A stretch of 60,947 nt of DNA, filler included, from Nemertoderma westbladi (GCA_032718475.1; 3 parts of 3 records of this genome joined end to end with filler, not necessarily neighbours in it); one strand, 5' to 3'. Shown: positions 12,831 through 50,939, counted from the first letter of the whole stretch. Notes: generated by a model from the letters alone, not told the origin. Made by a program: numbers and translations.

Positions 12831-12900
12831 ACTGACCTATTGGTGGTGGTTGGATTTTTTTTTTCAGTACAAATGTCTCCTACATTGTTCTTGGGGGAGA

Positions 12901-13201: not shown

Positions 13202-13206
13202 ATTAG

Positions 13207-16140: not shown

Positions 16141-16186
16141 AAAACTTATCGAGTAAATGAAGTTCCACTTCTCATAAGGGGGGTTA

Positions 16187-16285
16187 TGTTAGGACCTAAG
16201 AGACTCAACAATATTCCTTACCGGTACCAGAACTAAAAAGTCTGAAACCTAGATTATTATTATTATTAAGCACTGTCTGACTGTG
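16187..16285 (+). repeat. 3' LTR of Gypsy A, truncated and fused to the satellite
   Basis: Preceded by the PPT. Runs into the satellite through shared GACTGTG. Confidence 0.85.
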
Positions 16286-20159: not shown

Positions 20160-23100
20160 TTAATTACTACAACTCAATCCGTCTAACTGCCAAGGATCGC
20201 GGGAACCTTTTGAACACAACGTCTCCCAACCGGTATTCCCACCCTCAACATCCTGTTTGACATCACCGACGCATTTGGACATGCAGTGCACACACTGCCC
20301 GCTAGAGGCGTCCCACCAGCAGTCAGGGTCCCGCAAGAAGACGCACTTAGCACAGCTGTCCGCGCGGTCACAATTCCATCGTGGTAACTTAGCAACAGAA
20401 TCCTCACTCAACATATATACGCTGTCCTGGGTAAGGGTAACCCTAGTAACTGATTCGTTCTGCATTGCCTGTATTGATTGAACAATTACATTTACATATT
20501 AATTAATTATTAATAATTAAATTACTGTTATTATTTTTACTGAATATTAAATTGAAACCAATTTGAATCATCTATAAAAATGTTTCATTCTGGACAAACA
20601 TATTTGGACTATACTACTACTACTAGGTCGAGCGAACTCGGACAGTGGAAATGAGATCCTTCCAGACTTCTCGTTTCTCCCAAGTTCAGTATCCCTTTCA
20701 AGTTGATCTATATATGTTATGGCCGGTCGTACACGACTACGCTTTCCATGAGTTGGTTGCCAGAGAAGTAGATCTGGTATGACCTCGTCTTTACTTCGCC
20801 AGCAGTGCCCGCTGAATCTTAATCTGCGTTCACGGAGGGTGGTTGATACAGGTGGTATTGTACCATAAAGCTCGGCGTTTGTCATGTGTTGTATCCAGCT
20901 GATGTTTAGGGCTGCCCTTAGTTAGTAGTCTTGTGTAGCTACCATCGATTCGTTGTTCAGGTGATTTAGTAAGTGTCCTGGTCTCACCCCCATATAAAAA
21001 TACACTTTCCACTGTGGCTCGAAAGAACTTAGTCTTCAGGTGCCTGGAGAGATCTGATTTCCAGAAGGTATCCATTTTTGATAGAGCTACCCAAGCCTTT
21101 GCTTTCCTAAATTCTATGTCCTCCATTTTGAGTTAATAGCGCAAAATGAAGCACATACTTCTAAGCTATCATCTGATATATCAATGACTCTCATTAGTGG
21201 TTGTTTGACATTTTTATTTGAAATTTACCTAACTCGATCATTGCGAAATTTGGTGTTATTACACAAAGTCAAAAGCAACTAAGTCAAATTTTAAAGTCAA
21301 AAGAACCTAATACAGACAATTTTAAATATGAGTTATGTCATTTGTATCCGTTTTCTTTTTCAGGTGGGTACTGCCAGACTGCATAAGGCAAAAACACTTA
21401 ACTGAGTTTAAGTGGCCACTCGTCTTGCTCTATCAGTCTATAGACATATGGATATGTACGAAAAGTATAAGAAAAAACATATCAGAGTATGCTCTATCTA
21501 ATGATGACACAGCCATAGTAGCTACAGCATGCTAAAAGAGCAAACAAAATACCTTTGGGGCTTGATATCTCAGAATGAAGTTTTTGGAGTTACATGCCTT
21601 TCACTTTTGGGGTCATTTTACTGTTCGATTGTTCAATGGAAAAATAATTCTGGAAAAATGTAGCGCACCAGAAGTTTGTAATTGCTATGATATCCCTATC
21701 TGTTTCCTGGGTTACATACCTGAACCTCTTCGACCAAATGGAACCCTCCTGATTGGTTGTAGATGATCTTTAATAACCAACCGTGGCTTGTTCCGGCATA
21801 GACCACAGTCCACTTGGGTTGAGTGACGTCAGGGGTTACGATGGCAATGCAGGTGACGCGGTAATGTTTCTGTGTTAAAAGAAACATCGGGGGGCCGAGT
21901 TGAGGGACAGGTTTGGATAAAAGGGGGTGCGCGCGGGCGAATCTGTGAGAAAATTAGAAAATTATATATTTAAATATTTTATTTGAGTCTTCCATTGAAC
22001 ACATTAACAACTGCAGAGATAATATACCAATTATATATTATCTGACAATACACACGGCAATATATAAATGAAACAAAAACAAGTCTATCCCAAATACATA
22101 AAGCTCTAACTACCTTACTCTTTCAACTTCTCTAAATCCCTAATCTCTAACGGCCTTATGTAATGTAACTGAACTAACTCGATTGTTAAGCTGGGCGGAC
22201 TCCGGGAGCACAGCCCCGGACGGGGTTCGGGTACCTTCGGGAATGGGTTCAATTTGAGAGATTCGTCGAAGAAATCTCCTGTGTCGAATAGGTTGTCGAT
22301 GTCTGACAGTTTATAAACACAGACACTAGAAGCGGGGAGTCCTAGTAGTATATAATAATAATATATGAATATTATTCATATTAATAAATTGATAGCAAAT
22401 CATTTAATAGGATAGAATGTAAGAATCGACGTTCTCCTAATAATTATGATATTATCGTCAGCAAAAATAGTTTAATATCAAAGAATAATTAAAATAAACT
22501 CATTCTACTAAATCTCTAAATTGACTAAATCTCATTCTACTTATTCTACTAATAATACTAATTCATAATGAAAATATGCTCATGTTGTGCTAATTGCCAG
22601 GATGGTCCTTCTGTGACATTGAATACCACGGACAACAACAATAATATGTACCGGTATGTACTTACTGTATGTAAAGTGTATTTTCAATCTAAAACAATAT
22701 ATATTTGATAGTTTTTGTTGTCTATCGGGGTTATTGTAAAACATCGCCATATGTAATAACGATTTCATAATGAATAACAAGTAATAAATAACCAAGGTTA
22801 TTTAACACACCAGAATTCGGAGTTGCAAAAGATACATACAGTAACTCATCATCATCGATAGAATCCATAACCACGGCGGAAGTGACGTAATTGAAGACAA
22901 AGTGATCTCGGTAACTCGTGGGATCGAGTCGGCAGGTGAGGTCGGCCTTTAGGAATGATGTGAACCAATCCTTTTCATCGTCGGGAGATTTCGTATCGGA
23001 AGCACAGGAGCGGGCAATACGTGAGTAAATACGAAACTCTTTAGATTCGTAGGCGGCAGCGGGTTCACGGTAAACTATGTACTGGAATAGATATATAATA

Positions 23101-25250
23101 ATAATATATAAAATATAAAATATATATGGATTATGGATATTTGGTGTCTGAAAGTACTAGTATGCACATGGCTAGCCTCACTATCGGATTCTAAATCTCA
23201 AATATCGTTCTATCCGATTTTCGTTCTGTTTCTATAATTATGTAGAGAAACATTGAGTGCAAGAATTGTTATGAAGAATTAAAAATTTGGCTTAAAAAAA
23301 ATTATGGAATTTTTTTATTAATTTTTAAATAATTTTCAAAAACAAAAATTGAAAATTATGTCTACACAATCTTTGCGCGGATTATTTTATTAATACTAAT
23401 ATCTACTAATATTCTATCCTAATCTACCAATTCTGCATTAGAACTAAAATCGATTGAGTAGTTAAAAAGTACATAGAGAAAGTGTCTCAAAAAAGCCAAC
23501 ATGAGAAAGATGACATGTTATGGAAAAAGAGATTACCGATTCGCCATAAAATTTGACATCAGAAAACACAAAAAGCTATCAATAAAAATCGGATCCCATC
23601 ACCCCCCCCCCCCCCCCCCACCCCCCTTATGGTTAGACCAATTAGTGCAGCAGAAGTTCCAGTATGCCTACACCTCTATGGAAGTCTATGTTGGGCTCTT
23701 TATGTTGGGCATAAAGGAGGTGCCACCTGTGGCTGCATAGACCCCTTTACTAGGGCAAATCTGGTCCTGTAACTAGGACCCCCTTCGCTCTGGGATAAGG
23801 ACGCACTTGGTCCTGGATTATGGACGCATACACTTGGTGCAGGAGTATATGGCCTGACCAGGCAGATGGTGATCTACCAATGGCTGGTCAGGAGTAGAGT
23901 GTTCTCATGTCCACTCTGAGTGCACTTCACTGCGACCTGCACCTGGAGGCAGGGGTACAGGGCAAGTCCCAGCAGATGTGTGATATTTGCCCCGAGAGCT
24001 GACTCGGCAAAAAAGCACCCCCCAACCCCTAGTATGGATTACATTAGTAATGCGGAGGTCAGGCCACTAGAGGCCAGTGTAATTACCGGACACAATTGGA
24101 CTCACAGGCATAAGTTATCTCCTGACCGGCTGCCTGTCTAACCCTGTACTGGAGAGAGAGAGATGCCTGCAATTCTGTGAGTCCCTTTCATTATGACTTT
24201 TCTGGCCCAAACACTGGGTCACCAGGGAGGCCAGATTGTTAGGGGGAGTGGGATTCTGGAGTTGGAAGTTACTCTCATGTTCCACCCCGACCAACCAAAC
24301 CATTATTGGTGAATCTGAGACGAGAGTCTGAGTAGAAGACTCAGACTCTTGTCTGAGTCTGAGACACTGAGTCGAAACCAATTAATTGATCAACTGACTA
24401 TATACATTATTGTATATAGGACCCCTGCAATACTACATAAATTACATTATCTACTACATAAACCAACTTGGTATTGTCCAAACAGGAATTGTTTAACAAA
24501 GACACATCCTTCCTTATGGAATAGATTCATCTGCCTGAATGTGGGAACAAATGTATAGTTGGCACCATCTAGTAAATCAGGGGGCTCAGGGCTCCTCACT
24601 GTGAAAGTGGTTCGAAGTATCACTCGTGTCCGGTGGCTACCGCGACCATGAGTGGATGCGGTAAACAGCTGCCCCGCCGAGTTGTAAACGGCAGTGTTGG
24701 AAGTCCTAAATGGAAAGTTTGGTATGAAAACTCTTCCTCTCATCTGTGAGATTAAAGTGAAAGTTGCTGAAGTGGCGATCAAATCAAATAGTTTACATTC
24801 AGGAACTTCACCATAAATTCCACAAGCGAGTAATAAGCCATCTGGACGAAATAATAACAATCTGATGTAATTCTCGCAGATTATATGGGACGTACAATTA
24901 TACGTTGCCCATTCTAGACTTTTTCCAGTATCATTTATGTTGTTTTTATCCAACAAGAAGATGTGGTTTCTAGCTGAAATTAATAAGTGATTTCCATTGG
25001 ATGTAAATATGATATCATGGAGATTCGGGGATATTTTGGATTTATCGTTTTTGTACCATCGATCCGGTCTAGGGATCCAACTTTGAACCGAGTTAAATGG
25101 CGAATTTAAATGAAGGCGTGGGCTGTTAGGTTGCACATCCAGCGGAAGTATGGTCTCAAAAGAAGTCACAATATTGAGTAGGGAGATAAAAATACAGAAA
25201 CAATGTAGATTATTAAGGAAGTTCATATTGAATATTCGATTGACATACAT
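20160..25250 (-). CDS. Semaphorin (signal peptide + Sema + PSI), about 582 aa; exons 25250-24468, 23081-22811, 22341-22179, 21942-21720, 20468-20160
   Basis: GT-AG introns with consistent phases. Sema motifs: ARNHIF, CENYIR, ACG, YSRIARSC, WFTSFLKADLTC, SSVCVY, VPEPRPGLC, HPLL, GT.HG.LLK. PSI: C...SCAKC...RDPDCWW. The C-terminal end is uncertain. Confidence 0.9.
20611..21124 (-). mobile_element. RTE LINE 3' fragment in semaphorin intron 4
   Basis: Motifs FRATVESVFLYGGE, RRLRFSGHCWR, LLWQP. Ends in a (TAG)n tail. Confidence 0.85.
23640..24322 (+). mobile_element. RTE LINE 5' UTR/ORF-start fragment in semaphorin intron 1
   Basis: 24114-24322 is homologous to 17520-17722. The upstream GC-rich part is inferred to be 5' UTR. 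Confidence 0.65.
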
Positions 25251-27076: not shown

Positions 27077-27176
27077 NNNNNNNNNNNNNNNNNNNNNNNN
27101 NNNNNNNNNNNNNNNNNNNNTTAATTAATTAANNNNNNNNNNNNNNNNNNNNNNNNNNNNNNNNNNNNNNNNNNNN
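27077..27176. other. Assembly gap with artificial six-frame-stop linker
   Basis: N-run, TTAATTAATTAA, N-run; exactly 100 nt. Confidence 0.97.
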
Positions 27177-29267
27177 CTGTTAGTGAGGACCTTGGGGAAG
27201 GGAGGTTGTTAGTGAGGACCTTGGGGAAGGGAGGTTGTTAGTGAGGACCTTGGGGAAGGGAGGTTGTTAGTGAGGACCTTGGGGAAGGGAGGTTGTTAGT
27301 GAAGACCTTGGGGAAGGGAGGTTGTTAGTGAGGACCTTGGGGAAGGGAGGTTGTTAGTGGGGACCTTGGGGAAGGGAGGTTGTTAGTGGGGACCTTGGGG
27401 AAGGGAGGTTGTTAGTGAGGACCTTGGGGAAGGGAGGTTGTTAGTGAAGACCTTGGGGAAGGGAGGTTGTTAGTGAGGACCTTGGGGAAGGGAGGTTGTT
27501 AGTGAGGACCTTGGGGAAGGGAGGTTGTTAGTGGGGACCTTGGGGAAGGGAGGTTGTTAGTGAGGACCTTGGGGAAGGGAGGTTGTTAGTGAAGACCTTG
27601 GGAAAGGGAGGTTGTTAGTGAGGACCTTGGGGAAGGGAGGTTGTAAATGAGGACCTTGGGGAAGGGAGGTTGTTAGTGAGGACCTTGGGGAAGGGAGGTT
27701 GTTAGTGAGGACCTTGGGGAAGGGAGGTTGTTAGTGAGCACCTTGGGGAAGGGAGGTTGTTAGTGAGGACCTTGGGGAAGGGAGGTTGTTAGTGGGGACC
27801 TTGGGGAAGGGAGGTTGTTAGTGGGGACCTTGGGGAAGGGAGGTTGTTAGTGGGGACCTTGGGGAAGGGAGGTTGTTAGTGGGGACCTTGGGGAAGGGAG
27901 GTTGTTAGTGAGGACCTTGGGGAAGGAAGGTTGTTAGTGGGGACCTTGGGGAAGGGAGGTTGTTAGTGGGGACCTTGGGGAAGGGAGGTTGTTAGTGGGG
28001 ACCTTGGGGAAGGGAGGTTGTTAGTGAGGACCTTGGGGAAGGGAGGTTGTTAGTGAGGACCTTGGGGAAGGGAGGTTGTTAGTGAGGACCTTGGGGAAGG
28101 GAGGTTGTTAGTGAGGACCTTGGGGAAGGGAGGTTGTTAGTGAGGACCTTGGGGAAGGGAGGTTGTTAGTGAGGACCTTGAGGAAGGGAGGTTGTTAGTG
28201 AGGACCTTGGGGAAGGGAGGTTGTTAGTGAGGACCTTGGGGAAGGGAGGTTGTTAGTGAGGACCTTGGGGATGGGAGGTTGTTAGTGAGGACCTTGGGGA
28301 AGGGAGGTTGTTAGTGAGGACCTTGGGGAAGGGAGGTTGTTAGTGAGGACCTTGGGGAAGGGAGGTTGTTAGTGAGGACCTTGGGGAAGGGAGGTTGTTA
28401 GTGAGGACCTTGGGGAAGGGAGGTTGTTAGTGAGGACCTTGGGGAAGGGAGGTTGTTAGTGGTGACCTTGATGAAGGGAGGTTGTTAGTGAGGACCTTGG
28501 GGAAGGGAGGTTGTTAGTGGTGACCTTGATGAAGGGAGGTTGTTAGTGAGGACCTTGGGGAAGGGAGCTAGTTAGTGAGGACCTTGGGGAAGGGAGGTTG
28601 TTAGTGAGGACCTTGGGGAAGGGAGGTTGTTAGTGGGGACCTTGAGGGAAGGGAGGTTGTTAGTGAGGACCTTGGGGAAGGGAGGTTGTTAGTGAGGACC
28701 TTGGGGAAGGGAGGTTGTTAGTGGGGACCTTGGGGAAGGGAGGTTGTTAGTGAGGACCTTGGGGAAGGGAGGTTGTTAGTGGGGACCTTGGGGAAGGGAG
28801 GTTGTTAGTGAGGACCTTGGGGAAGGGAGGTTGTTAGGAGGACCTTGGGGAAGGGAGGTTGTTAGTGAGAACCTTGGGGAAGGGAGGTTGTTAGTGAGGA
28901 CCTTGGGGAAGGGAGGTTGTTAGGAGGACCTTGGGGAAGGGAGGTTGTTAGTGAGAACCTTGGGGAAGGGAGGTTGTTAGGAGGACCTTGGGGAAGGGAG
29001 GTTGTTAGTGAGAACCTTGGGGAAGGGATGTTGTTAGTGAGGACCTTGGGGAAGGGAGGTTGTTAGTGAGGACCTTGGGGGAGGGATGTTGTTAGTGAGG
29101 ACGTTGGGGAAGGGAGGTTGTTAGAGAGGACGTTGGGGATGGGGAGGTTGTTAGTGAGGACCTTGGGGAAGGGAGGTTGTTAGTGGGGACCTTGGGGAAG
29201 GGAGGTTGTTAGTGAGGACCTTGGGGATGGGGAGGTTGTTAGTGAGGACCTTGGGGAAAGGAGGTTG
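27177..29267. repeat. 29-bp minisatellite (GTTGTTAGTGAGGACCTTGGGGAAGGGAG)n, about 72 units
   Basis: Seen directly; truncated by the gap. Confidence 0.97.
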
Positions 29268-29389
29268 ATATCAGTATATCACTATTATTATAATCGAGTT
29301 ATATTGGTGTTGTAAGGGTCTAAGCCACGATTCTAAGTAAAACAAATTCCGGGCTCTCGATAAAAACTGTACCACGTAACGAACCTAGT

Positions 29390-29875
29390 TTGGGTAAATT
29401 ACTTATACAAAAACGAGAACCAACCCTAGCACTTGGCAACCACCCGTGTGGTCAATCTCGGTGTCTAACATGCCCAGTGATAAACGACCTCTCACACACA
29501 CCATGGGGAGACCGTATTCGAGGCCGGTTCAACTGTAAGTCCCATAATGTTTTATATATAATAACGTGTAATGAACACCAGACCCAGTACTACCTCGGCC
29601 AAACTGAGCAGCACCTCCACAAACGACTCAACAAGCACCGGGAGAATATCCAAGAATATCGGAAGTCCCTAAATGCCCCTCCTAAACCCAACAAACCGAA
29701 CGTGGTGACCAGCAACCCAGAAGTCATCCTTCTGGAACACTTCGCCCAGTGTCGGAAATATACTGTTACGTGCGTACAGCAATTTCGTAATCACCACCGG
29801 CGTATTCACACCGAAGCCATCCTTATTAATTTACACCGCCCTCCCCTCAACAAAGTTATTCCACCATTATACTAA
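29390..29875 (+). CDS. Penelope GIY-YIG endonuclease (C-terminal part of the ORF)
   Basis: CxxxxCxxC, then CKSHNVLYIITC...YYLGQT...RLNKH...HF...EAILI...PPLN. Confidence 0.88.
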   Translation: MGKLLIQKREPTLALGNHPCGQSRCLTCPVINDLSHTPWGDRIRGRFNCKSHNVLYIITCNEHQTQYYLGQTEQHLHKRLNKHRENIQEYRKSLNAPPKPNKPNVVTSNPEVILLEHFAQCRKYTVTCVQQFRNHHRRIHTEAILINLHRPPLNKVIPPLY

Positions 29876-30530
29876 ATTATTCTGCTTTTTGTAACTCGAT
29901 TCACTTTGTATAACAATAGCGTAACTTCAATGGTGGTGTTATATTATATTATATATTTTATTATTGTTAGCGTCTTGTTTCAACAGCTGCTAGACCTGCA
30001 GTAATTTATTCCAGCATTGTGGTGTCATCTATCAACTTTATCTCATTTTATGAATTTTATCGATTGTTTGCTCATGTTTTAAATAATTTTATTTTATTTC
30101 ATTTCACTTTATTTCATTTTATTTAATTGTACCTTCCAAGCCGTCCATACCTGAACTGCCGTATATCTTTTTATTTATTTTTACTATTTTAACTTAATTA
30201 ATTGTATCTACCTAGCCTTAGTCACACTTCGCATTTTATCGAATGTTCATCCGAAAAGTATCACAATATTATATATTTAACTTTATTTTCCTTACCTATT
30301 TTAATTTAACTTATCCTCCATGACAGCCTAATCTAATCTCTCTTTTTACCACTGCTCATATTTTATTCACCCTTCGCATTTTATCGATTGTTCATCCGAA
30401 AATAACCAGGCATGTACTGTACGATAGCCTCGTATAAATTAGTATCTTTTACAGTATTATTCAATTAAATTTAACCACGTACGTACTTATTTTAATATGT
30501 AAATTATGTAAACATTTTATTATATATTTA

Positions 30531-30574
30531 TATCACTGAAGACGTGTGTTAATACACGAAATGGCCATATGATA
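30531..30574 (+). ncRNA. Minimal type I hammerhead ribozyme
   Basis: TATCA-CTGAAGA-c-GTGT(gttaat)ACAC-GAAA-TGGCCA-TA-TGATA: conserved core, stems I and II, palindromic stem III. Predicted cleavage after 30569. Confidence 0.8.
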
Positions 30575-30707
30575 AAAAGGAATTTGTTTTACTTAGAATC
30601 ATGGCTTAGACTCTTACAACACCAATATAACTCGATTTTAATATGTATTCGCCGCGAACGACATCTTTCAAACTCGCTTCATATTTAGACTATTATTATA
30701 GGTATTA

Positions 30708-31005
30708 CAGGGTTGCCACTTTCTTTTAGTTTCAATTTTCCCTGACTTTTTGAAAAAATTCCCTGACTGTAGGTACAACATTTTTATATATTATATGGAC
30801 AGCTGTATATTTTCCATTCGCTTTATTATATTACAAAAAAAAGGAATGCAATGGCGAGCGAAGTCTGCAGAGAAACTTTTACACATTTTCGCTATGACAC
30901 CATGATGTCCTGTATATCAAATTCCCTTACTTTTCCCTGATTTGTCCATTTTTTTACATGAAATTCCCTGACTATTCCAGGTTTTCCAGGTGAGTGGCAA
31001 CCCTG
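30708..31005. mobile_element. MITE with 13-bp TIRs CAGGGTTGCCACT
   Basis: Perfect inverted termini and internal TTCCCTGA repeats. Confidence 0.85.
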
Positions 31006-31068
31006 AAATATCTAGTTCGTCTATATAATGGCAACCGGATTTGGAGTACACTGTAGTAAGTAACTCAC

Positions 31069-34000
31069 CTTCAAACAGAAGTATTAGAACCAAGTCGACC
31101 AGTCGCATAGCATCGAGGACGCATCTACCGTCGCCGGTGACGGATAGAGCGACGGATTCGCAGAGGTTATGTCGGAGTAGACTGTGAGTGATTCCCGGCG
31201 AACCGCGGCACAGGGTACTCAGTAGACTCACTATCGTACTGATATTCTAGAAAACAAACTCACATAGTTAATATGCGAAACCCATACATACATACATACA
31301 TACATACACCATGCCCTGGAATATAACGTATTATTCAAACATTTTCTACAAATCTTAATTAATTAATGCAATTTGAAACAGACAGTTAGATGTCCTAAGT
31401 AGTAGAGGTTTGGCCGGCTCGGCGACAGTTAGATGTCCTGACTTCTTAATGGGTGAAGCAGAAATTATGTTTTATCTTTCAATGTTTAACAACAAAAGCG
31501 TTTGACAATTTGTCTCCGTAGATATTGCACTAGTCGCAGTGAATTTGAATATGAATTTGTTATATTCCATCACAACACATTCCACAGTTTTATAAATATA
31601 TTTACAAGATTGGCAACCGAAACCATGCACCCTTCTGCCGTCATTGCCTATCTCTTGTCGCTCTCGCTTCAACAACTAAATTTTCCAGGTCAATTTTTAA
31701 TCAAATACCTGTCATTAAAATTTACCCCGCCAGGGTGTATATATAATAATATTATGATGCCGGAATTTTTGTTACCATGAAGACGGAATTTTCAAAGTTT
31801 TAAAAGTGTCTTTTGCGAAATCGCACCCTCGGTATCGTGGCCATTCTTCAGATTAGTCGTAATTTTTTCATATCATTAGAAAGCTTACGTTGCAAGGATT
31901 CCAAATATGTAACAATATCTGAATTTCGTTGAGAAACAGATGAGATATAGGCGTTCAAAGATTGCAAGAAGTATCATTCGCTGTAGACAATTAATTCCAT
32001 TGAATAAATACACAAAATTCTAGAAGGTATTATTTATTTTATGAGTAGGTGGGCAACAGCCGCGGTATACCTACCTATATAAATTACCGAAGCGGTTCCC
32101 CCAAGCTTGACACTAGAACAAAGCCGCCCCCGCTTAGCAGGACATTGCTTTCGCCGTGAGGACCAGCCAGTGCATAATCTTGTGCTTTGGCGGCCTCATG
32201 GAGTGAACAAGCATGGTGGACAGCACATGACATTCTTGAGACGCATCTTAAAGGACACTGGCCTTAAAGATACGGATGATCTAGCAAATGTCATGGGTGA
32301 TAGGGAGTTGTGGCGGCGCATTTGTGTCGATAAGCCGGCACATCATTGTTAATATATATGTAATATATATATATAATGCAGCTGCAGTGCATCGTGTCGA
32401 TCGTAGTAGTAGTATACCTATACAATATCGCTATTGCGTAGCTATTCATACATAAACCAAATGTTTCAGAACATTGTGTATTTATTTAATATAATAAATT
32501 GGAGTTGAGATGTGATTATTGAATTATTATTATTATTAAATAGAATAAATGATTATAGCTAAATAATCCCCAGTTAAATAATAACTAGAGTGTAACTGGT
32601 GCAATGGAAGGGGAAGCAAATACATGCAGCTTTCGAAAGCCCGTATATCAGCAATTTTCAAACCAAATTCAATGAATCCGTGGACGGCCGGCTTTCTAAC
32701 AGTATCAACAAATCACTATAGAGTATAAGGTTAAATAACAAGTGCTGTATAACTGGTGCAATATCGATGGAAATACCTTTTTTAAACGCTTGTAGCTAAA
32801 GAATGAAAGCAAAAATAAAAGTTCTGGCTCACCCACTCAGTGGTCGGGAGGTGAAACTATCTTTGTTTTAAATTCCATGCGATCTCATTAATATTTGTAT
32901 AATTTTTGGGGGGTGAGGGGGGGGGGGGGAACCAGTTGAGGTACCTGAATAACGCATTCCAGGACATGGTGTAAATTTAGTACGATTTACTTAAGTTCTT
33001 TTTACTTTAGTTGATTAATAGAGTGTGAGTTGGTAGTCAATTTCCATTTGGTAGGAGAAAAGAACGCAACGACCAAAGTAACTACTATCAACTAATGTGT
33101 TATCATACATAAGTGGTAAGTAGGCTGTTGCTAGGATACAATAATACGGTGAAAATACATTGATTGGACTGTTGCTATGCGTGTTAGCATTATTGTACTA
33201 AAGGTAGAGTAAGGTTGTGTGTGCAGTGCATACCTTCTCAGTACATTGTATTTAGGCCTATTATCTATACTACACTCAAGGTAGGCCAGACTGCCAAGCC
33301 TATCAGCCTGTAGCTGTCTGTGATTCATGTGCCCTAAATTATTTCGGTTTCAAACATTAGACTCCAGACAGCCAGATAAAATTATGACATCACACCCCTA
33401 AATTTCAACCTTAAATTGGTAATCCATAGGCCACTTCCGTATTTCTTCCTACTGCACCTACTGTCTGACTGTCTTACATACAGTACCGGTAGACTGACAG
33501 ACATTCTGATATTCCTGTCTGCCTGTATTCTGCCTCGCGGGCCGGTGTCTTAGATACACCTACATTAACTGTGACATTACGGACCACCCGCACTACGTAT
33601 TATCGTTTCCTTTAAACCTATCTCCATCCACCATCACCACAACGCATACGAACTGAATAACAGAAATGAGCAGCGGAGTTCATCTGTGGAGGTGGGGGGC
33701 GCGACTCAACGGGACTCAACGCTATCGCCTGTTAAACCTACCGGTACATCCTCACGGAAACAACGCCATATGCGCGCCGACTATCGTGGTAAGCAGGTCC
33801 CACTCGGGTATTTACGGAGAGAGTGGGAGCGTGAACGAGCAGCCACTACGACGTTTGGTGGGATTAACTAAAGTATTCGCAGTAGTTGTTCCGGCTATAA
33901 TAGTTGGGGGGTTTATGAGCAAGGAGGGGGCGGCGTGGTTGGAAGATAATGATATATTTGTACCCGAGGAGGACGACGATTAATAGATCCGTAGTGATTG

Positions 34001-37000
34001 GATATATAATTTTGCATATCCTAGTTGCCAAGACTCTGAACTCCTAGTCTAGTACAATGCTAGCTGACTAGTGTACAGTAGTAGACATAGTTGTAGAACG
34101 CAATAATTTTTATTGTCCATTTTTATCCTTTTTTTGTCAATTTTTTTTGATTTTTTATGTCATCCAAAAGTCTAATGTTAGGTTCCATGCTACCGGTTTC
34201 TCTACTGCTGTTCTCTCAGGCTATCAGTACCGGTTAGTATATATATAGCACTATTTTGCTGTATTGTATGTACAGATGTAGGTATAAAGCAGGTATTTCT
34301 GTATTTTAGTACCGGTACCGGCACTGGTACTGCTATAGGCCTACTGTGTAGCCTACCATTTAAATACGGTAATGGTAGGCCTACCGGTTGTGCTAATAAA
34401 TTTTAAATAATTGATAGGCGAAACTGGATTGCAGGATTGTGGAAAATGTGGATATACCTTTCACATAATTTAGGCCTTACTGTATTAGTTTTATAATCAA
34501 TAATGGATCATGACTACTGTCTGAGTAGTGTTACGGATAGCGGCTCCACTACTTCCAACAGCACAGAAGGCCCGCCTCTGTAACCTGCCCCTTTCCCTCA
34601 ATTAGTTAAATGATCGTTTATTGTTTTGGTTAGAAAATCCCGTCTCTGTAACCTGCTCCTTTCCCTCAATTAGTTAAATGATCGTTTATTGTTTTGGTTA
34701 GAAAGTCCCGTCTCTGTAACCTGCTCCTTTCCCTGATTTGGTAAAGTGACTGTTTATTGTTTTGGTTAGAAAATCCCGCCTCTGTAACCTGCTCCTTTCC
34801 CTCAATTAGTTTAAGTGATCGTTTATTGTTTTGGTTAGGAAATCCCGCCTCTGTAACCTGCTCCTTTCCCTCAATTGGTAATGTTATCGTTTATTGTTTT
34901 GGTTAGAAAATCCCGCCTCTGTAACCTGCTCCTTTCTCTCAATTGGTAATGTTATCGTTTATTGTTTTGGTTAGAAAATCCCGTCTCTGTAACCTGCTCC
35001 TTTCCCTCAATTAGTTAAATGATCGTTTATTGTTTTGGTTAGAAAATCCCGTCTCTGTAACCTGCTCCTTTCCCTGATTTGGTAAAGTGACTGTTTATTG
35101 TTTTGGTTAGAAAATCCCGCCTCTGTAACCTGCTCCTTTCCCTCAATTAGTTTAAGTGATCGTTTATTGTTTTGGTTAGGAAATCCCGCCTCTGTAACCT
35201 GCTCCTTTCCCTCAATTGGTAATGTTATCGTTTATTGTTTTGGTTAGAAAATCCCGCCTCTGTAACCTGCTCCTTTCTCTCAATTGGTAATGTTATCGTT
35301 TATTGTTTTGGTTAGAAAATCCCGTCTCTGTAACCTGCTCCTTTCCCTCAATTAGTTAAATGATCGTTTATTGTTTTGGTTAGAAAATCCCGTCTCTGTA
35401 ACCTGCTCCTTTCCCTGATTTGGTAAAGTGACTGTTTATTGTTTTGGTTAGAAAACTCGGCCTTAACCTGCTCCTTTCCATCAATTGGTAATTGTTTTTG
35501 GCTTTTTAGAGTCTTTTTACCACAGGCGCATATGGAAATCTATCTCATAGTCTATAAATCATGGAATCATGGAATGTTTTGGCACAGGCATAGTGAAATC
35601 AACTGTCTGACAGTCCAGAAATGAAGTTTGAAGACAGTGACAGTTTGAAGAAATACATACATAAAAAGTGACAATAAAAGTCATTAAATGGACAACAAAA
35701 GTCATTATGCATAATTCGTAAAAAAAAAGTGACAAAAAAAGTCAAATAAATTGACATAAAAAATCACTGCCGTTGTAGAAGACAATTAATTACTAATTAA
35801 TAGCAGCTGATTAATAGTATTGTAGTACAATACGGTGTATGACCTTCTTACTACTATTACTAGAGTACTGCCGTTACTGTAATATAGATGGTGGACATAA
35901 CTTATGGTTTATTACACCATGTCCTGGAATATAGTGTATTAATTCACGTACTCGACCCCCCTCCCCTACAAATCTTAATGAGATCGTGTAAAATTTGATA
36001 CAGAGTTAGTGTGAATTTGTCCTCTCGTTGTCTGACTGAATATCATTTTCGCCTTGAACACAATATTGCAGCGTTACACCGCAGCTACCCTAATCTAAAG
36101 GTCGGTTTACATATTACAACTCGCTTATCATGTTGGTTCATGTAAACAGGGGAAACACCTCGTCGCCGAAAACATTTGCTGTGGAAATTGCTGTTTTTAT
36201 TTAGAATTTTCGGCATTGGATCGAAAAAGATGGCCGTGTTCCAGCAACTTGCTTGATTTGCTTGTTGTTGTAAGTTAAACAAAAGAAACAGCGAAAAGTG
36301 GAAAATTGGTGACAGTGTGATAAGCTTTAGGCTTTTATACAACTTTTGAACTTCAACCAAATTCATATTTCTTCACGGATTTTTTCTGACGGGTTGATTA
36401 TTTTACACTCCCCCCATTCCAGGACATGGTACACTGTAGTAATAGTACTAATGTTGGATTATATCAGGAGTTCAGTGTACAAGTTGGTATTTTTTCATGT
36501 GCCTTTATCCAGTATTTTTTTTATAGTCTTTATTCGTTGCATTTTTAAGTACTGCACTGTACCGTATTGTCCGTATTGCGTAATAACATTTTAGGACTTT
36601 GTATGCACAGCACAACTTGTTAATGGAGGATAGAGACAGGGGGGGGGGGGGGGGGGGACTGGACGCAAAACCCGCCTTGGCGAATTAATATCCCGCCTCA
36701 AAGTTAAATTCTCAATTTAGGGAAAAGAGCAGGTTATAGTGGCACGTTATTTTAATCAAAACAATAACAGGTTACAGTTTTATTTTTGAGAGTAATCACA
36801 ATCAGCTGTTATTTGCGTCGAATTTCCCCTGGAGAGAGATTATTTTTATTGCGTCCAGTTCCCCCCCCCCCCCCCCCCCCCCCCTGCTGGTATGGAATAA
36901 CAACTTAATCTCAAGGGACCAAGCTACTATAGACTTTGACTTTTCGTTATAATTTCAAATTCGTCAAATAAAATTAAGTGTAAATCTTATGAATTTAATC

Positions 37001-40000
37001 TATAATGTTTGTGCATTCAAGTGCTATTTATTTAAAATTACAATACTTGATATCAATCATAGCAAGTCAAGTTATTTATTTTATTTTAATGACGTCATTC
37101 ATATGGAGTTACATAAAGTCCATATTTAATAATAAGTTTTAATAATTCCGTTCCGATTGGGACCAAAACCATGGAATTTAGATTGACATTGAGCTATAAC
37201 AGTTATTAAAAGAAAACAATTTTTTTTGAAACCCGGGTATTTCTAGTTTGTTTCCTTCCACCTAAACGGTACTCGTTGTTCTTGGTTCTTTTGAGCGAAT
37301 ATAATACCGATTGTATGAAAAAGGTTAGTTTAGTTCATCATATCAGAATATTTTACTTTAAAATTTAAATAAAATTATTCGGACATGGTGAAATGAATCA
37401 ACTTTTTTTATAATGATTATAATGCGATTAGATTATATTATTATAAAAAAATACTAACAGTAAATCAGCGTTTTTTTCTACATTTGTTAGTGAGTCGGTA
37501 GAGTTGGTAGAGTTGGTAGAGTTGGTAGAGTTGGTAGAGTTGGTAGAGTTGGTAGAGTTGGTAGAGTTGGTAGAGTTGGTAGAGTTGGTAGAGTTGGTAG
37601 AGTTGGTAGAGTTGGTAGAGTTGGTAGAGGTGGTGGTAGAGTTGGTAGAGTTGGTAGAGTTGGTAGAGTTGGTAGAGTTGGTAGAGTTGGTAGAGTTGGT
37701 AGAGTTGGTAGAGTTGGTAGAGTTGGTAGAGTTGGTAGAGTTGGTAGAGTTGGTAGAGTTGGTAGAGTTGGTGAGTCGGTAGAGTCGGTAGAGTCGGTAG
37801 AGTCGGTAGAGTCGGTAGAGTCGGTAGAGTCGGTAGAGTTGGTAGAGTTGGTAGAGTTGGTAGAGTTGGTAGAGTTGGTAGAGTTGGTAGAGTTGGTAGA
37901 GTTGGTAGAGTCGGTAGAGTCGGTAGAGTCGGTAGAGTTGGTAGAGTTGGTAGACTAGTTAAACTAGTTAGAATTATAAATATTTCTAAAACTAAATATT
38001 GGAAATAACAAATTTTATTTAAATGTAAATTTTACTGTAGATCTAAAATTTGAAATTAAAACATTGATACAAATTCAAAATTTAGCATCACCGACATTCA
38101 CAGAAGTCAAATCATTCAAACTCTAAATCCGATTCGTCTATACCATGGGTGCACTAGGGCTTCCCACTTTATCTCATCGGACTGGTGATGTTACTTAGTT
38201 GACACTGGGAATGGAAACGTAATCCACGATTTGTTAATCTCCTGGTTCGTGTAGTTTTAACTTTTAATATCGATCTGACTAACTAACTAGTTGTAATTAC
38301 GTTAACTGGGTTACTGGAACCTGCTCTGTATCTACTGGCCGATTACTGGAACCTGCTCTGTTTCTACTGGCCTATGTTCACCTGACGCCATGCCATGGGG
38401 ATATTTAAATAGTAATTATTATAAATAAAAATTCGCCATTCTTTGGGAATTGTTTTTGGTTTTCTAAACAAATGTTCTAATTGTTTAGAAACTTTTCACA
38501 ATGAATATTATAAAACAAATCGCCGCAGTAAATAACAGTGAACCCGACTAAACCGACAAATGACTAACAAAACCCGCTTATTCATTGCAGTTAACAAAAT
38601 AAACAATAAGTATAAACAAACGTTTAAAAAAAAAAACAGAAAGTTATACCTTTTTTGTTTAATTTCGTGCCATTTTATGTTCTATTTCCAAATATCGAAA
38701 CCTTTTATGTTATTGCCGTATATCTATTGCATTATAATCTTATTGGATATTCTATGCGATGCGTCTTGTCATTGCGTTTGATTTACATAACGCTGACATT
38801 AAAATGTTGACTTTTTTTTGTTTCCCACCAACCTGTACTGTTTGTTTCCCATAAACCTGTTTATTTCCCACCAACCTGTACTGTTTGTTTCCCATAAACC
38901 TGTTTGTTTCCCACCAACCTGTGTACTGTTTGTTTCCCATAAACCTGTTTGTTTCCCACCAACCTGTACTGTTTGTTTCCCATAAACCTGTTTGTTTCCC
39001 ATAAACCTGTACTGTTTGTTTCCCATAAACCTGTTTGTTTCCCACCAACCTGTACTGTTTGTTTCCCATAAACCTGTTTGTTTCCCACCAACCTGTACTG
39101 TTTGTTTCCCATAAACCTGTTTGTTTCCCAGTCCACCAACCTGTACTGTTTGTTTCCCATAAACCTGTTTGTTTCCCACCAACCTGTGTACTGTTTGTTT
39201 CCCACCAACCTGTACTGTTTGTTTCCCATAAACCTGTTTGTTTCCCACCAACCTGTACTGTTTGTTTCCCATAAACCTGTTTGTTTCCCACCAACCTGTA
39301 CTGTTTGTTTCCCATAAACCTGTTTGTTTCCCAGTCCACCAACCTGTACTGTTTGTTTCCCATAAACCTGTTTGTTTCCCACCAACCTGTGTACTGTTTG
39401 TTTCCCACCAACCTGTGTACTGTTTGTTTCCCATAAACCTGTTTGTTTCCCACCAACCTGTGTACTGTTTGTTTCCCACCAACCTGTACTGTTTGTTTCC
39501 CATAAACCTGTTTGTTTCCCACCAACCTGTGTACTGTTTGTTTCCCATAAACCTGTTTGTTTCCCAGTCCACCAACCTGTACTGTTTGTTTCCCATAAAC
39601 CTGTTTGTTTCCCACCAACCTGTACTGTTTGTTTCCCATAAACCTGTTTGTTTCCCAGTCCACCAACCTGTACTGTTTGTTTCCCATAAACCTGTTTATT
39701 TCCCACCAACCTGTGTACTGTTTGTTTCCCATAAACCTGATTATTTCCCACCAACCTGTACTGTTTGTTTCCCACCAACCTGTTTGTTTCCCATAAACCT
39801 GATTATTTCCCACCAACCTGTGTACTGTTTGTTTCCCATAAACCTGTTTGTTTCCCACCAACCTGTGTGTTTCCCATAAACCTGTTTGTTTCCCACCAAC
39901 CTGTTTGTTTCCCATAAACCTGTTTGTTTCCCATAAACCTGTTTGTTTCCCACCAACCTGTACTGTTTGTTTCCCATAAACCTGTTTATTTCCCACCAAC

Positions 40001-41562
40001 CTGTGTACTGTTCGCCTCTGGAGTTGCATTCGGTGTAGTCTTTACCGCAGTAGCAGCACTGGGTGTCGGCATTCCGCAGTTACCCAGTCGTAACAACAGC
40101 TGATCAATCAACTGACTTTCGGCCAGCGGGGCGGGATCTAAGCCCCTGCGGGTGAACCGATCAGCCAAGGAAGCGAAACACCTGAGGGCCCCATCCGCAA
40201 CCTAAACGCAACATACAGCTCAGAGTATTGTGAGTTAAGGTGCAATTCAGTCTTCATTTCTTTTCCTACTGCTCTCAGACTTTTTTTTTGAAAGGTTACA
40301 CCAGCCAGGCTGGCATTTGAATTTATTTGCACATTTCAGCTAAAAATTGTATCATACATTACACAGGGGTCAATATAACATACAAGCTTAAAAAAACACA
40401 GCAGAAATATGCTAGTTCGGATAAAAGTTATACGCAAAGAATACATAACAAATACAATCAACTAATTTAACACATTGGACACAATAATTCAATCGGTTAT
40501 ATCGGTTAATCGGTTATATATAACAATAAATAAGTTATATGTTCACTGTTCATTCGCTCCTCGGTTGTATTTAGTGTATGCTTGATACGAGAGAATTTAT
40601 AGGAGGAACTGGGAAGTTGGCAATACATTGCTTGAAAACAGAACCCAGGCCAGAGTAAGAGCATGGATCGATGGATCAGACAGATATACATTCTGCCGAA
40701 GCAGACTGAACTAACCTGGTAGTCATCATGCTGCAGCAAGGTAGACAATGAGTCCACGCACTGTGGCAGCGACGGGTCTGTTGGTTCCACCTTACCACAG
40801 AGTCGGGTTACTACGGACATAGCGGAGTGGAGAGTGTCTTTGTGTATGATGTTGCCATGGTTGCGTATAAATGTGAGACAACAATTGAGACCTCCGGACT
40901 CAAATACAACTCCTGAATTAATGGGACATAATAATAGGGCCTAAATATCAATCACAATTGTCATGCGGGGTGAGCGACTAAGCAAGCGACCTGAGCATAT
41001 GGATACCGCTCCAACCGCTGTTTCAACCGTTGTCTGTGCGTCTGTCGGGTCGGTCGGTCGGTCTGTCTGCAGGTCGGACTGTCGCCTAATGTTTGAAGGC
41101 AAATAACTCAGTCAATATTATATGATTAAATCAAACCAAACTTCGCAAATTATTAAATTACAATTATTAATTATTAGCAAAATCCAAGTTAATTTTTACA
41201 TGAAATAAAACGTTTGAAGAAATGTGATAATAATGTAATTTAAGTGAATTTTCATTTATTATATGAACATGCGATATAGAGTTTAGATATGTCTACCTGA
41301 TTCTCGAGTGCAAACCAACTCCAGCACTTTGACACATTGTTCGGCGAGATCCTTACTGGTTCTATCCGAGGCGTCGATAATAACCAGACGGTTACACAGA
41401 GCGGCTACCGCTCCTTCCACGGCCACTACACGTCTGGTACACTCGGCACTCACGTCCAGGTAGTAAGTAATAGCACGAGCTGTAACCTCGAGGACGTTCT
41501 CAGGGGCTAAATCATCGGTAAGGATCTTACACAGAGCAGGTAGGAACGTGCGAGGTGGACAC
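31069..41562 (-). CDS. HECTD1: HECTD1 E3 ubiquitin ligase, partial; exons 41562-41297, 40912-40716, 40201-40001, 31246-31069
   Basis: [13 protein letters not shown]...[21 protein letters not shown]...[17 protein letters not shown] / VFE.GGLNC...HKDTLHSAM / [26 protein letters not shown] / [15 protein letters not shown]...LLFEG matches the HECTD1 N-terminus. GT-AG phases are consistent. The first coding exon and all downstream exons are not in this contig. Confidence 0.95.
31307..32971. mobile_element. Non-autonomous DNA transposon (TIR CACCATGYCCTGGAAT, TA flanks) containing an RTE insertion
   Basis: Inverted termini at 31307 and 32956-32971. The left end is similar to the copy at 35915. Confidence 0.7.
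32107..32412 (+). mobile_element. RTE LINE 3' end
   Basis: RLAGHCFR...LVLWRP...DRELWR and a (TAG)n tail. Possible TSD GTATACCTA. Confidence 0.85.
33666..33983 (+). CDS. SMDT1: Essential MCU regulator EMRE; intronless and nested antisense in a HECTD1 intron
   Basis: Basic N-terminal presequence, SG.V..QP, TM helix [21 protein letters not shown], acidic tail [17 protein letters not shown]. Confidence 0.93.
   Translation: MSSGVHLWRWGARLNGTQRYRLLNLPVHPHGNNAICAPTIVVSRSHSGIYGESGSVNEQPLRRLVGLTKVFAVVVPAIIVGGFMSKEGAAWLEDNDIFVPEEDDD
34571..35500. repeat. 68-bp minisatellite with a 5-unit (about 341 bp) higher-order repeat
   Basis: Unit CCCGYCTCTGTAACCTGCTCCTTTCCC...TTGTTTTGGTTAGAAAAT. Related inverted copies at about 36710-36780 and 50823-50915. 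Confidence 0.92.
35915..36431. mobile_element. MITE, same family as 31307-32971
   Basis: Termini CACCATGTCCTGGAAT ... ATTCCAGGACATGGT. Confidence 0.8.
37492..37954. repeat. 9-bp tandem repeat (GAGTTGGTA)n
   Basis: Seen directly. Confidence 0.97.
38819..40012. repeat. Modular 19-28-bp minisatellite overlapping the HECTD1 donor site at 40001/40000
   Basis: Sense-strand modules AAACAGTAC(AC)AG|GTTGGTGGGA and AAACAG|GTTTATGGGA. Confidence 0.95.
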
Positions 41563-43540
41563 CTGTGTGAGATAAAGGGGGAAAATGTGGTGGACACCTG
41601 TGTGAGATAAAGGGGGAAAATGTGGTGGACACCTGTGTGAGATAAAGGGGGAAAATGTGGTGGACACCTGTGTGAGATAAAGAGAGGAATGTGGTGGACA
41701 CCTGTGTGAGATAAAGATAGGAATGTGGTGGACACCTGTGTGAGATAGAGGGGGAAAATGTGGTGGACACCTGTGTGAGATAAAGGGGGAAACTGTGGTG
41801 GACACCTGTGTGAGATAAAGAGAGGAATGTGGTGGACACCTGTGTGAGATAAAGGGGGAAAATGTGGTGGACACCTGTGTGAGATAAAGAGAGGAATGTG
41901 GTGGACACCTGTGTGAGATAAAGGGGGAAAATGTGGTGGACACCTGTGTGAGATAAAGAGAGGAATGTGGTGGACACCTGTGTGAGATAAAGAGAGGAAT
42001 GTGGTGGACACCTGTGTGAGATAAAGGGGGAAACTGTGGTGGACACCTGTGTGAGATAAAGGGGGAAAATGTGGTGGACACCTGTGTGAGATAAAGAGAG
42101 GAATGTGGTGGACACCTGTGTGAGATAAAGAGAGGAATGTGGTGGACATCTGTGTGAGATAAAGAGAGGAATGTGGTGGACACCTGTGTGAGATAAAGAG
42201 AGGAATGTGGTGGACACCTGTGTGAGATAGAGGGGGGAATGTGGTGGACACCTGTGTGAGATAAAGGGGGAATGTGGTGGACACCTGTGTGAGATAAAGA
42301 GAGGAATGTGGTGGACATCTGTGTGAGATAAAGAGAGGAATGTGGTGGACACCTGTGTGAGATAAAGATAGGAATGTGGTGGACACCTGTGTGAGATAGA
42401 GGGGGAAAATGTGGTGGACACCTGTGTGAGATAAAGGGGGAAACTGTGGTGGACACCTGTGTGAGATAAAGAGAGGAATGTGGTGGACACCTGTGTGAGA
42501 TAAAGGGGGAAAATGTGGTGGACACCTGTGTGAGATAAAGAGAGGAATGTGGTGGACACCTGTGTGAGATAAAGGGGGAAAATGTGGTGGACACCTGTGT
42601 GAGATAAAGAGAGGAATGTGGTGGACACCTGTGTGAGATAAAGAGAGGAATGTGGTGGACACCTGTGTGAGATAAAGGGGGAAACTGTGGTGGACACCTG
42701 TGTGAGATAAAGGGGGAAAATGTGGTGGACACCTGTGTGAGATAAAGAGAGGAATGTGGTGGACACCTGTGTGAGATAAAGAGAGGAATGTGGTGGACAT
42801 CTGTGTGAGATAAAGAGAGGAATGTGGTGGACACCTGTGTGAGATAAAGAGAGGAATGTGGTGGACACCTGTGTGAGATAAAGGGGGAAACTGTGGTGGA
42901 CACCTGTGTGAGATAAAGGGGGAAAATGTGGTGGACACCTGTGTGAGATAAAGAGAGGAATGTGGTGGACACCTGTGTGAGATAAAGAGAGGAATGTGGT
43001 GGACATCTGTGTGAGATAAAGAGAGGAATGTGGTGGGCACCTGTGTGAGATAAAGAGAGGAATGTGGTGGACATCTGTGTGAGATAAAGATAGGAATGTG
43101 GTGGACACCTGTGTGAGATAAAGGGGGAAACTGTGGTGGACACCTGTGTGAGATAAAGAGAGGAATGTGGTGGACACCTGTGTGAGATAAAGAGAGGAAT
43201 GTGGTGGACACCTGTGTGAGATAGAGGGGGGAATGTGGTGGACACCTGTGTGAGATAAAGGGGGAATGTGGTGGACACCTGTGTGAGATAAAGGGGGAAA
43301 ATGTGGTGGACACCTGTGTGAGATAAAGAGAGGAATGTGGTGGACATGGACACCTGTGTGAGATAGAGGGGGGGGGGGTATGGTGGACATGGACACCTGT
43401 GTGAGATAAGGGGGAATGTGGTGGACATCTGTGTGAGATAAAGAGAGGAATGTGGTGGACATCTGTGTGAGATAAAGAGAGGAATGTGGTGGACAGTGGA
43501 CACCTGGGAGGTATGTGGTGGACATTAGTGTGAGATAAAG
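41554..43540. repeat. 33/34-bp minisatellite overlapping the HECTD1 acceptor at 41563/41562, about 60 units
   Basis: Sense-strand unit ACATTYYYYCYCTTTATCTCACACAG|GTGTCCACC. Confidence 0.97.
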
Positions 43541-43589
43541 GGAGTTACAGTATGTGTCATCGCCTTGTGGAAAATAATGAGTTATTTTG

Positions 43590-45477: not shown

Positions 45478-45577
45478 NNNNNNNNNNNNNNNNNNNNNNN
45501 NNNNNNNNNNNNNNNNNNNNNTTAATTAATTAANNNNNNNNNNNNNNNNNNNNNNNNNNNNNNNNNNNNNNNNNNNN
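45478..45577. other. Assembly gap with artificial six-frame-stop linker
   Basis: N-run, TTAATTAATTAA, N-run; 100 nt. Confidence 0.97.
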
Positions 45578-48500
45578 AGTTCGGCAATCAAAGCAATATT
45601 GCAATATACAGATATAAGAATAACAATATTATATATATAACAGCAAAGCAGGCATTTGCAATTAAGCGGTATTATCAGTTAGCTGTTACCGACAATAACA
45701 AACAGTCGGCATCACTTTATAACAAAACCAGTAAAAGGTCAACATGCAAACTCACGGTATTATATATATAAGCAATATTAACGGCATATTAGGCCTTAGG
45801 CAGTTAAGGTTATGAATCAGTTACCTACAGCAGTACAGACAACAGTAACCGGTATATTCGGATTCTGTATTGCCGTAAAACAGCTGATCCACCACACTAA
45901 TGCATAAAAGCATACTGTAGAAAATTATAATACTATACCCCATCACCATTTTAAAGTAGTAAAGCAGTTTTGGATTGCACATACCCCCACGTCGCGACAT
46001 ATTTTCTTTCGTCGCGAAACTAAGCAGGATGCTTAACGTGGCGTCCATAAGACGTTATATAGACGGATGGGGTAGACTGAGTTTGACACTTGGATGATAC
46101 CACCGGCGATGAACAGGGAATCATACCCGATGATGCGTTGGTAACACTAGGAATTGGGGCATCTGAAACCTCCAAGGGTATAAGAAGATTTCTTGTGGTT
46201 ATTCTTCCACGAAGAAGAATTTCGACTGCTCGAACGACACCATCACGTCCTGTTAATAGTTTGTGGACCCGAGCTAAACGCCATTGTCCTCGGGGTGCAC
46301 GTTCTTTAACAAGAACAAGATCTCCCAGGTTGGGAGTGTTATATGACTGTTGAGCAGTTCTCCAGGTACGCAAAGATGCCAGATACTGTTGTAACCAAAT
46401 CTTCCAGTAACTTTGAGCCAACCGGTCTCTTGAGAGCAGGCCTCGGCGAAGCTGGGAAGATTCGACAATACGATAATCGACTGATGAATCAGGTGGTGGA
46501 CTACCATATAAGAAATGGCCTGGAGTTATAGCTAGACAATCATTAGGATCTTTAGAAACAGCACTTAAAGGTCTAAGGTTAATTACTGCTTCCACCTCAG
46601 CAGTCACCGCCTCTAATTGTGCTCGAGATAATTTACGTTTCGTTCGTTGATGCTGCTCTACCTTAATGAGAAAGTTAGTAGAATCATCAAGTTCATGTCC
46701 CTGAAGAGATCCAAAAGCTTTGAGATTAGGGTAGCGAGTATTGTGGATAAACCGGCAAATCCAAGCTAAGATACGAACAGGGTGGTTTATAGAGGAATAT
46801 TTATGCAGGTCTAGCAAATTCCAATCATGGGTAAAGGGAATAGATACAATGGTTAGTAATTGTAGAGGTGGAGAAGGCTCATCCGGCCAGAAGGATTCAG
46901 GGTATAAGATAAAAGGTGGACCATGCAGGTATAGGTCATTTGTCGATAATGATGATAAGCTGCATCCTCGAGAAGGAACATCGGCTGGGTTCTGTTCTGA
47001 ACATACATATCTCCATTGACTAGGAGTAGTAAGTTTACTAATTTCTAATAACCTGTTGTTGACAAATACATCACGTTGGGATGTACCCTTATGGATACGA
47101 GCAAGAGTACAGGTAGAATCAGACCAGAGATGAATATATTGTGGTATAAACAGATACTCAACAACATGGTGTGCAAATCGGGCTCCAATCAGGGCAGCCA
47201 TTAATTCAAGTCGGGGTGTGCTTAATCTCAATTTTATAGGTGCAACTCGAGATTTGGCAAAGTATATAGTGGGTTGGTAAGAAGGTTGAGTTACATAAGC
47301 AACAAATGCATATGCATAGGATGATGCATCACAAAAAATATGCAGTCTGCAGTTGCCATTCAGGTTTATACTTCGAGGGAAGGGGATAATAATACCAACA
47401 TCAACCACCCAGTTATTCCATTCCATCTGAAGATCATGAGAGAGTGGTTGACCACTTAGTTCCAGAATCACTGGACTTCTGAACTATTCGACGAACCAGC
47501 AGAATCCAAGGGCTTAGCAAGCCTAATGGATCAAAAACCTGAGCATAGGTTCTCAAAATCTGCCGACGAGTAAGTGAGTTTGGCGAAGATATATGAGAAG
47601 TATCTACATAAATGATGTCTCGTGACATATCCCATGATAAGCCCAAAATCCTAGTAGGATTGATAGTAATTCGGAGATTCATCCCCGCAACAGCAAAGAG
47701 TTCTTTAACAAGTTCATAAAATGCCATGGCAGAATCTGGATTATCACTTCCATACAAGAAATCATCACAATAAAGTGAGATAATAATTGCCTTAAATAAC
47801 TCAGGATTAGGGGGAGCTTTTGTATGAATGTGGTGGCGAATAGTAGAATGAAGTAAGTAAGAACTCGGTTTGAGCCCAAACGGAATTCGTTTGAACTGAT
47901 AAGACTCTCCTTTCCAGATGATTTTTACCCATTGACGGTCTTCGGGATGTATTTCAATCTGATGATATGCTGCTTCTATATCCGTAACTACAACATATGG
48001 ATGGTGGCGAGATCTTAAAAGTACATCAACCATTGAAGCTAATAAATTTGGTCCCACATCAAGGCAAGAATTTAGAGTAACTCCATTACAATCAGGAGAA
48101 GAGCCATTAAAAACGACACGGTATTTGCGTGAAGAAAATACACCATGATGTGGGAGGTAGAATCCAATATCCTTACCAGTATTAGCAGGCTCAATTATGC
48201 CATCCATTGACAATTTGGCAAATTTCTCTTCGTATATAGCCTTTGTTTGAGGATTTAAGGATGAAGTAACTTTATGTTGGCGAGAAACAACTGCACTATA
48301 ATTAGTTACAGGTCTCTGATTTCCAAGGAAATGTAATCGGACTTGATAATGAGGTGGATCCTCTTTAGAGATTACAGGAATAATTTCAGGTACAAAATGA
48401 ATCTCACTCTCTTTAATTCCAATAGTTTCTAAGTTCCATAGATTGGACACTTCTATAGGTTCTGTTAATATTAAGGAAGGAGATAAACCCATATTAATGC

Positions 48501-50810: not shown

Positions 50811-50939
50811 ACAGTAGTGGTGTTTTCTAACCAAAACAATAAACTAATCTCCATTACTTAATTGACGGAAAGGAGCAGGTTACAGTGGTGGGCTTTTCTA
50901 ACCAAAACAATAAACATTATCTCAATAACATAGGGTATT

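Follow-up and report, generated by a model that had tools for sequence, protein, structure and literature searches.

The HECTD1 locus of Nemertoderma westbladi contains two long intronic arrays (arrays 1 and 2) that repeat, in tandem, a real acceptor and a real donor of this gene. In the assembled transcript the exon-adjacent copy is the one used, and the two arrays are likely neutral mirage minisatellites. They are a large new example of a repeat type that has already been described and is known from lancelets and humans. They also provide a natural test of splice-site choice, with 55 decoy acceptors placed upstream of the real one.

Exon map and transcript evidence

The window, meaning the whole stretch of DNA analysed, comprises 60947 bases, and the HECTD1 contig within it is bounded by two fixed 100-base placeholder gaps (27077-27176 and 45478-45577). 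Using tblastn with 11 homologs, we located four internal HECTD1 exons on the minus strand, which cover homolog residues 47 to ~334 and join into one open frame. In the numbering of this analysis, they are E2 (41297..41562, homolog residues 47-136), whose upstream intron is ancestral and in phase 2; E3 (40716..40912), with both ends free of arrays; E4 (40001..40201), whose last 12 bases seed array 2; and E5 (31069..31246), the final HECTD1 exon in the window, after which the mRNA continues with GT. The spliced contig described below agrees with tblastn for E2, E3, and E4, and the junction table does so for E5. Neither exon 1 nor any exon past E5 was found in the window by tblastn, and protein searches for the HECTD1 of this organism itself returned none. 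Array 3 is cut off by the gap at 27077..27176, within which exon 6 may lie.

Contigs from four sequencing runs cover the region, and none of these runs is recorded as RNA. Three are DNA runs from two studies (the assembly may itself derive from one of these), and the fourth, X4, is labelled 'DNA?'. The X4 contig is 2359 nt long, has a depth of 33, and matches the four HECTD1 exons with 0 mismatches. It omits introns 2 and 3 at GT-AG ends, joins exon 1 to position 41562 (the last acceptor copy of array 1), and joins position 40001 (the first donor copy of array 2) to E5. It also includes exon 1 and ~1250 nt beyond E5, both outside the window. Since run X4 is spliced and does not cover unique HECTD1 intron sequence, it behaves as RNA despite its label. 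None of its three aligned records falls on array units. All transcript evidence thus comes down to a single assembled contig of a single run, and rare forms are lost from contigs.

According to this contig, the spliced junctions read AT|GT at intron 1, AG|AA at intron 4, and AG|GT at intron 5. As a side observation, T occupies position +3 in two of the four HECTD1 donors (GTTAGT and GTTGGT, at E3 and E4), and the predicted first donor of a semaphorin-like gene in the window is listed likewise.

Arrays at the borders of E2 and E4

The initial annotation had placed three minisatellites at 27177-29267, 38819-40012, and 41554-43540, and all three are present there. It had described the last one as a repeat of the real acceptor plus nine exon bases, which both the unit table and the spliced contig confirm. 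Array 1 (41554..43544, minus strand) has a 34/35-nt unit made of the last 25-26 intron bases and the first 9 bases of E2, with 56 acceptor copies as assembled and a degenerate far end. All 56 pieces end in CACACAG, followed by GT in 49 and by AT in 7. The true E2 acceptor (41563/41562) is the last copy of the array, and the 55 extra CACACAG acceptors retain splice signals. The units fall into 14 distinct variants and include a 651-nt higher-order duplication. Of the 55 decoys, 20 are in frame and stop-free, so their misuse would escape decay and could be counted in raw reads.

Array 2 (38817..40012, minus strand) is made of mixed 19/24/26-nt units with 54 AG|GT sites as assembled. Its unit is the end of E4 plus the donor, as had been proposed for 38819-40012, and all 12 exon bases are retained in 8 of the 54 units. 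Here the true donor (40001/40000) is the first site of the array, followed by 53 extra AG|GT donor-like sites. The terminal residues of E4 align with homologs (NSTQ vs. KSSH in Mya), so the direction of copying was from exon to array. The intronic part of the unit is unlike the start of E5, and the sequence before its AG is A-rich and lacks a pyrimidine tract. The first intronic unit contains an in-frame TAA, and a transcript spliced from any decoy donor of this array would reach a stop after four codons; decay could thus hide such use.

In both arrays the unit runs across a real exon-intron boundary, the copies retain splice signals, and the authentic site is the one present in the mRNA, the latter according to the single X4 contig, in which rare forms could be missed. 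The proposal that such arrays would fill introns with tens of decoys also stands, with ~55 each from arrays 1 and 2.

Such arrays could arise from a short duplication across an exon border, which slippage and unequal exchange would then expand, in a genome background where G-rich, strand-asymmetric units may expand readily. The extra copies would fall within the intron and be tolerated there. The spliceosome would take the site adjoining the intact exon (the first donor or the last acceptor), probably by exon definition, by analogy with human F7 in the case of donors and by extension in that of acceptors. The AG|GT core would be carried along with the ordinary splice consensus.

Comparison with known systems

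A mirage in amphioxus Adh3 was reportedly described by Canestro in 2002. Amphioxus mirage minisatellites are also on record for the globin genes BflGb6 and BflGb9 (PMC3087553) and for PGBD5 (PMC3902484). They consist of tandem copies over an exon-intron border, at acceptors and at donors, as in HECTD1. They likewise have many copies with splice signals, degenerate edges, and apparently normal splicing. The dimensions differ: BflGb6 has 3-6 copies of 150-160 nt (PMC3087553), whereas HECTD1 has ~55 copies of 19-35 nt over 1.2-2 kb. Unlike the amphioxus cases, HECTD1 combines an acceptor mirage and a donor mirage in one gene, and its arrays are known as assembled.

Two human VNTRs are close to array 2. 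In the 37-bp VNTR of F7 intron 7, the first unit lies across the border and, of all the donors, the one furthest upstream is alone in use, which is also the situation in array 2 (PMC1557585). F7 differs in having 5-9 sites, and mutations proved its decoys capable of working, whereas array 2 has 54 sites in mixed units and is known from sequence. The 25-bp VNTR of ABCA7 intron 18 is, like array 2, a kb-scale array that extends from the donor with a donor in each unit (PMC5954066). However, its units begin at GT, and for ABCA7 it was shown that the second donor can be used and that exon skipping depends on array length. Array 1 is the acceptor-side counterpart of F7, and it runs against simple first-AG scanning. 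In the literature collection searched, no paper pairing HECTD1 with a minisatellite was found, and none of the papers listed for genome-wide surveys of junction-spanning repeats was on point, as judged by titles and the beginnings of abstracts.

Array 3 and the unseen exon 6

For array 3 (27177..29267, minus strand), the initial annotation was right about the unit. It is 29 nt long, with 72 copies as assembled, and contains a branch-point-like CTAAC, a C-rich tract, and AAG|GTC. The splice-junction origin that had been attributed to it is only putative: no visible exon adjoins the array, and it runs into the gap. It carries AGGT on both strands (70 sense and 69 antisense) and shows the strongest G-run asymmetry among the HECTD1 arrays.

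The X4 contig matches two bases past the end of E5 (31067), so that exon 6 starts with GT and its next base is not G. A start of GT rather than GTG would fit the AAG|GTC of array 3, and Arg, which follows this Gly in 99 of the 100 homologs with the motif, allows GTC. The conserved Gly dictates the G of the exon-6 GT, which leaves the T as the sole informative base. Random 29-mers from the window contain AGGT in 8.8% and the CTRAY motif in 11.3% of cases. Against an exon-6 mirage, AAG ends none of the nine acceptors in the window, and the AGGT on both strands and the G-run asymmetry count against it as well. The last base before the gap gives CTAACAG, a possible acceptor, at a contig end where the base is unreliable. 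An acceptor weight matrix built from 49 mostly T-rich sites was uninformative (real E2 acceptor -1.8, array 3 -8.2, shuffle P 0.37). When the unit was compared with the end of E5, AAG was the only match. Array 3 may have arisen as a mirage of the acceptor of the unseen exon 6, or it may be a G-rich minisatellite with no such link, and we give both readings about the same weight.

The depth of array 3 varies widely between runs (6138, 140, and 8). We did not read these differences as length polymorphism, since at array 1 there is an approximately tenfold difference even between two runs of the same sample.

The AG|GT core

The initial annotation regarded the AG|GT core as the special feature shared by three otherwise unrelated arrays. 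We found AG|GT to be frequent at the junctions anyway: it occurs at 6 of the 8 HECTD1 junctions and at 7 of 18 in the window, counting those of the semaphorin-like and Ly6-like genes, which were predicted by eye. Two arrays drawn from HECTD1 junctions would both carry AG|GT about half the time. At the E2 acceptor, AG|GT is a coding accident: its GT results from the codons of Met (AT|G) and of the next residue, Cys (TGT), and 6 of 41 distinct homologous E2 acceptors begin with GT.

Two arrays that had been left out of the initial annotation bear on this point. Array 4 (34571..35491, minus strand) is a 68-nt repeat with CAG|GT in the middle of intron 4, and array 5 (37492..37954) is a 9-nt repeat in the same intron that has no sense AGGT. 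The latter is a counter-example to the AG|GT theme. Since AG|GT is common at HECTD1 junctions and is also found in array 4, a relative of a dispersed repeat, the core is weak evidence, and the link is mostly ordinary splice consensus.

Alternative explanations

The proposal that arrays are seeded at real junctions holds for arrays 1 and 2 and exceeds random expectation in the window: two of the eight arrays of at least 400 nt span one of the 18 junctions (P ~0.004 under random seeding, in a window picked for the pattern). This excess is unexplained by the neutral mirage model itself, and it would be expected if some mutational process aimed at junctions, such as R-loops or reverse transcription at splice sites, seeded arrays preferentially at exon borders. 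We consider such a process rather unlikely, given that the excess comes from a single window chosen because of the pattern, that none of the ten predicted junctions of the semaphorin-like and Ly6-like genes lies in an array, and that compositional asymmetry near splice sites could yield an equal excess. Two further points sit uneasily with neutral mirages: two non-junction arrays also have sense AGGT, slightly above the expectation of 8.8% per 29-mer, and the ABCA7 arrays can alter splicing (PMC5954066).

Also at odds with the neutral reading, three of the five HECTD1 introns occupy positions that no covering related locus shares. A loose test flagged 67 loci as intron-bearing, and among these no intron was found at residue 136 (intron 2, 0/29 covering loci), residue 274 (intron 4, 0/25), or residue 334 (intron 5, 0/16; 5 of these cases were settled by eye), whereas an intron near residue 125, present in most related loci, is missing here. 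The three unshared introns (41297, 40001, and 31069) and the missing one suggest intron turnover in the lineage; given the redundancy and distance of the related loci, these introns can be called 'lineage-specific' provisionally. Junction arrays could have driven intron gain or sliding in this lineage, so that introns 4 and 5 arose or moved in this way. Array 2 is at intron 4, array 3 is within intron 5, whose junction reads AG|GT, and Ebner et al. propose mirages as a source of introns (PMC3087553).

Still, we regard this origin of introns 4 and 5 as highly improbable. Of 80 related loci retrieved (a redundant and taxonomically narrow set), 9 lacked context and 71 could be scored; 56 of the latter have intron 1, which contains array 1, so array 1 did not create it. 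Intron 4 has an AG|AA junction and the intronic part of its array differs from the start of E5, so it fails the duplication model; for array 3, the match with the end of E5 is limited to AAG. Intron 2, whose position is likewise unshared, lacks an array, and the set of related loci is narrow for this argument as well. The model of intron gain by Rogers (PMC3265369) likewise involves tandem duplication of sequence containing AG|GT. However, its unit is coding on both sides and a new intron results, whereas the HECTD1 units are part intron and part exon and lie at existing introns. An AG|GT junction together with a unit of coding sequence from both exons was found at none of introns 1, 4, and 5. 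Intron creation through AG|GT duplication, which the initial annotation had brought up, does not fit the ancestral intron 1 or the AG|AA junction of intron 4.

The AG|GT units could instead act as recursive (ratchet) sites, either removing the intron stepwise or allowing a second splice to repair a mis-chosen decoy. In array 1, a pyrimidine tract and a following GT accompany 49 of the 56 acceptor copies, and GTTGGT is a working donor in this gene. Recursive splicing leaves no trace in mature mRNA, as stated in a study of mouse sites (PMC8797253), and the clean X4 contig is compatible with it. Arrays 1 and 3 resemble the sites of that study in having an intronic AGGT after a pyrimidine tract; array 2, with A-rich sequence before its AG, does not. 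The donors that would be regenerated are poor: exon 1 ends in AAAT and would give AAAT|GTGTCC, array 3 would give GTCCTC, and GTTTAT is the remaining form, with GTTGGT the one form shown to be a donor and none resembling AGGTAAGT. The same study describes mouse sites as single and conserved, with strong donors that favour AGGTAAGT, in introns >51 kb, whereas here there are many weak, non-conserved copies in short introns (intron 4 is 8.75 kb). None of the 56 homologous E2 acceptors, all from distant and redundant relatives, carries a tandem array. Recursive use of the units therefore seems to us very highly improbable.

A broader reading, in which the junction arrays reflect active intron remodelling, array 3 derives from the exon-6 acceptor, the arrays mark or have placed introns 4 and 5, and some units serve as recursive or rescue sites, also appears quite improbable. 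If border enrichment genome-wide or a tie to the unshared introns were true, the arrays would represent a visible route of intron turnover.

Finally, the arrays could have been inflated or created by assembly error. They contain exact block duplications (562 nt in array 1 and 409 nt in array 4), and array 3 both ends at a gap and has the uneven depth given above. Against this, the units are diverse, with 14 distinct variants in array 1 and 22 pieces in array 3. In the three DNA runs, which come from two studies, the depth of contigs made of array-1 and array-2 units also far exceeds that of unique sequence (for the array-1 bin, 1912 vs. 54 in X1 and 730 vs. 14 in X3, where summed contig depth does not equal copy number). 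Moreover, X2 contigs cross from unique sequence into the first units. We therefore hold assembly error to be extremely unlikely, and neutral mirage minisatellites remain our preferred reading of arrays 1 and 2.

Other arrays and repeats in the window

Eight arrays of at least 400 nt fill 9243 of the 60947 window bases, and six of them have no visible junction. An absolute G4Hunter score of at least 0.6 was obtained for five of nine arrays, vs. 8.6% of background 30-mers. Exact internal duplications of 562, 210, 173, and 409 nt would point to expansion steps involving several units at once, and higher-order duplications may bear, indirectly, on the instability of array length. Array 4 contains a 341-nt higher-order block, and its dispersed kin are at 36713-36767 and 50823-50915 (76-84% identity).

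One 31-nt family accounts for three arrays (4034-4872, 16279-17513, and 18525-19031). Two of the arrays of this family are preceded by what we take to be LINE remnants, endonuclease-like, at 3244-3753 and 17700-18520. Two of them flank what is presumably a nest of LTR retroelements (~4873-16278), with a direct repeat common to both of its ends. A high-copy element (29283..30640) separates E5 from array 3, and has inverted ends of ~60 nt, a remnant of a GIY-YIG-like ORF (29324-29875), and high depth. We assume it to be Penelope-like, and it sits 15 nt from the start of array 3. Upstream of HECTD1 E2, past the second gap, there are presumably remnants of BEL/Pao-like retroelements at 46020-50660 (minus strand) and 51568-55288 (plus strand).

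Apart from HECTD1, we predicted a five-exon gene at 20160-25250 on the minus strand, which we take to be semaphorin-like; none of its 8 predicted junctions has an array, and its first donor is uncertain. A two-exon gene was predicted at 834-1670 on the plus strand. It encodes a secreted, cysteine-rich protein of 101 residues ending in CCDEDLCN, presumably of the Ly6/three-finger type.
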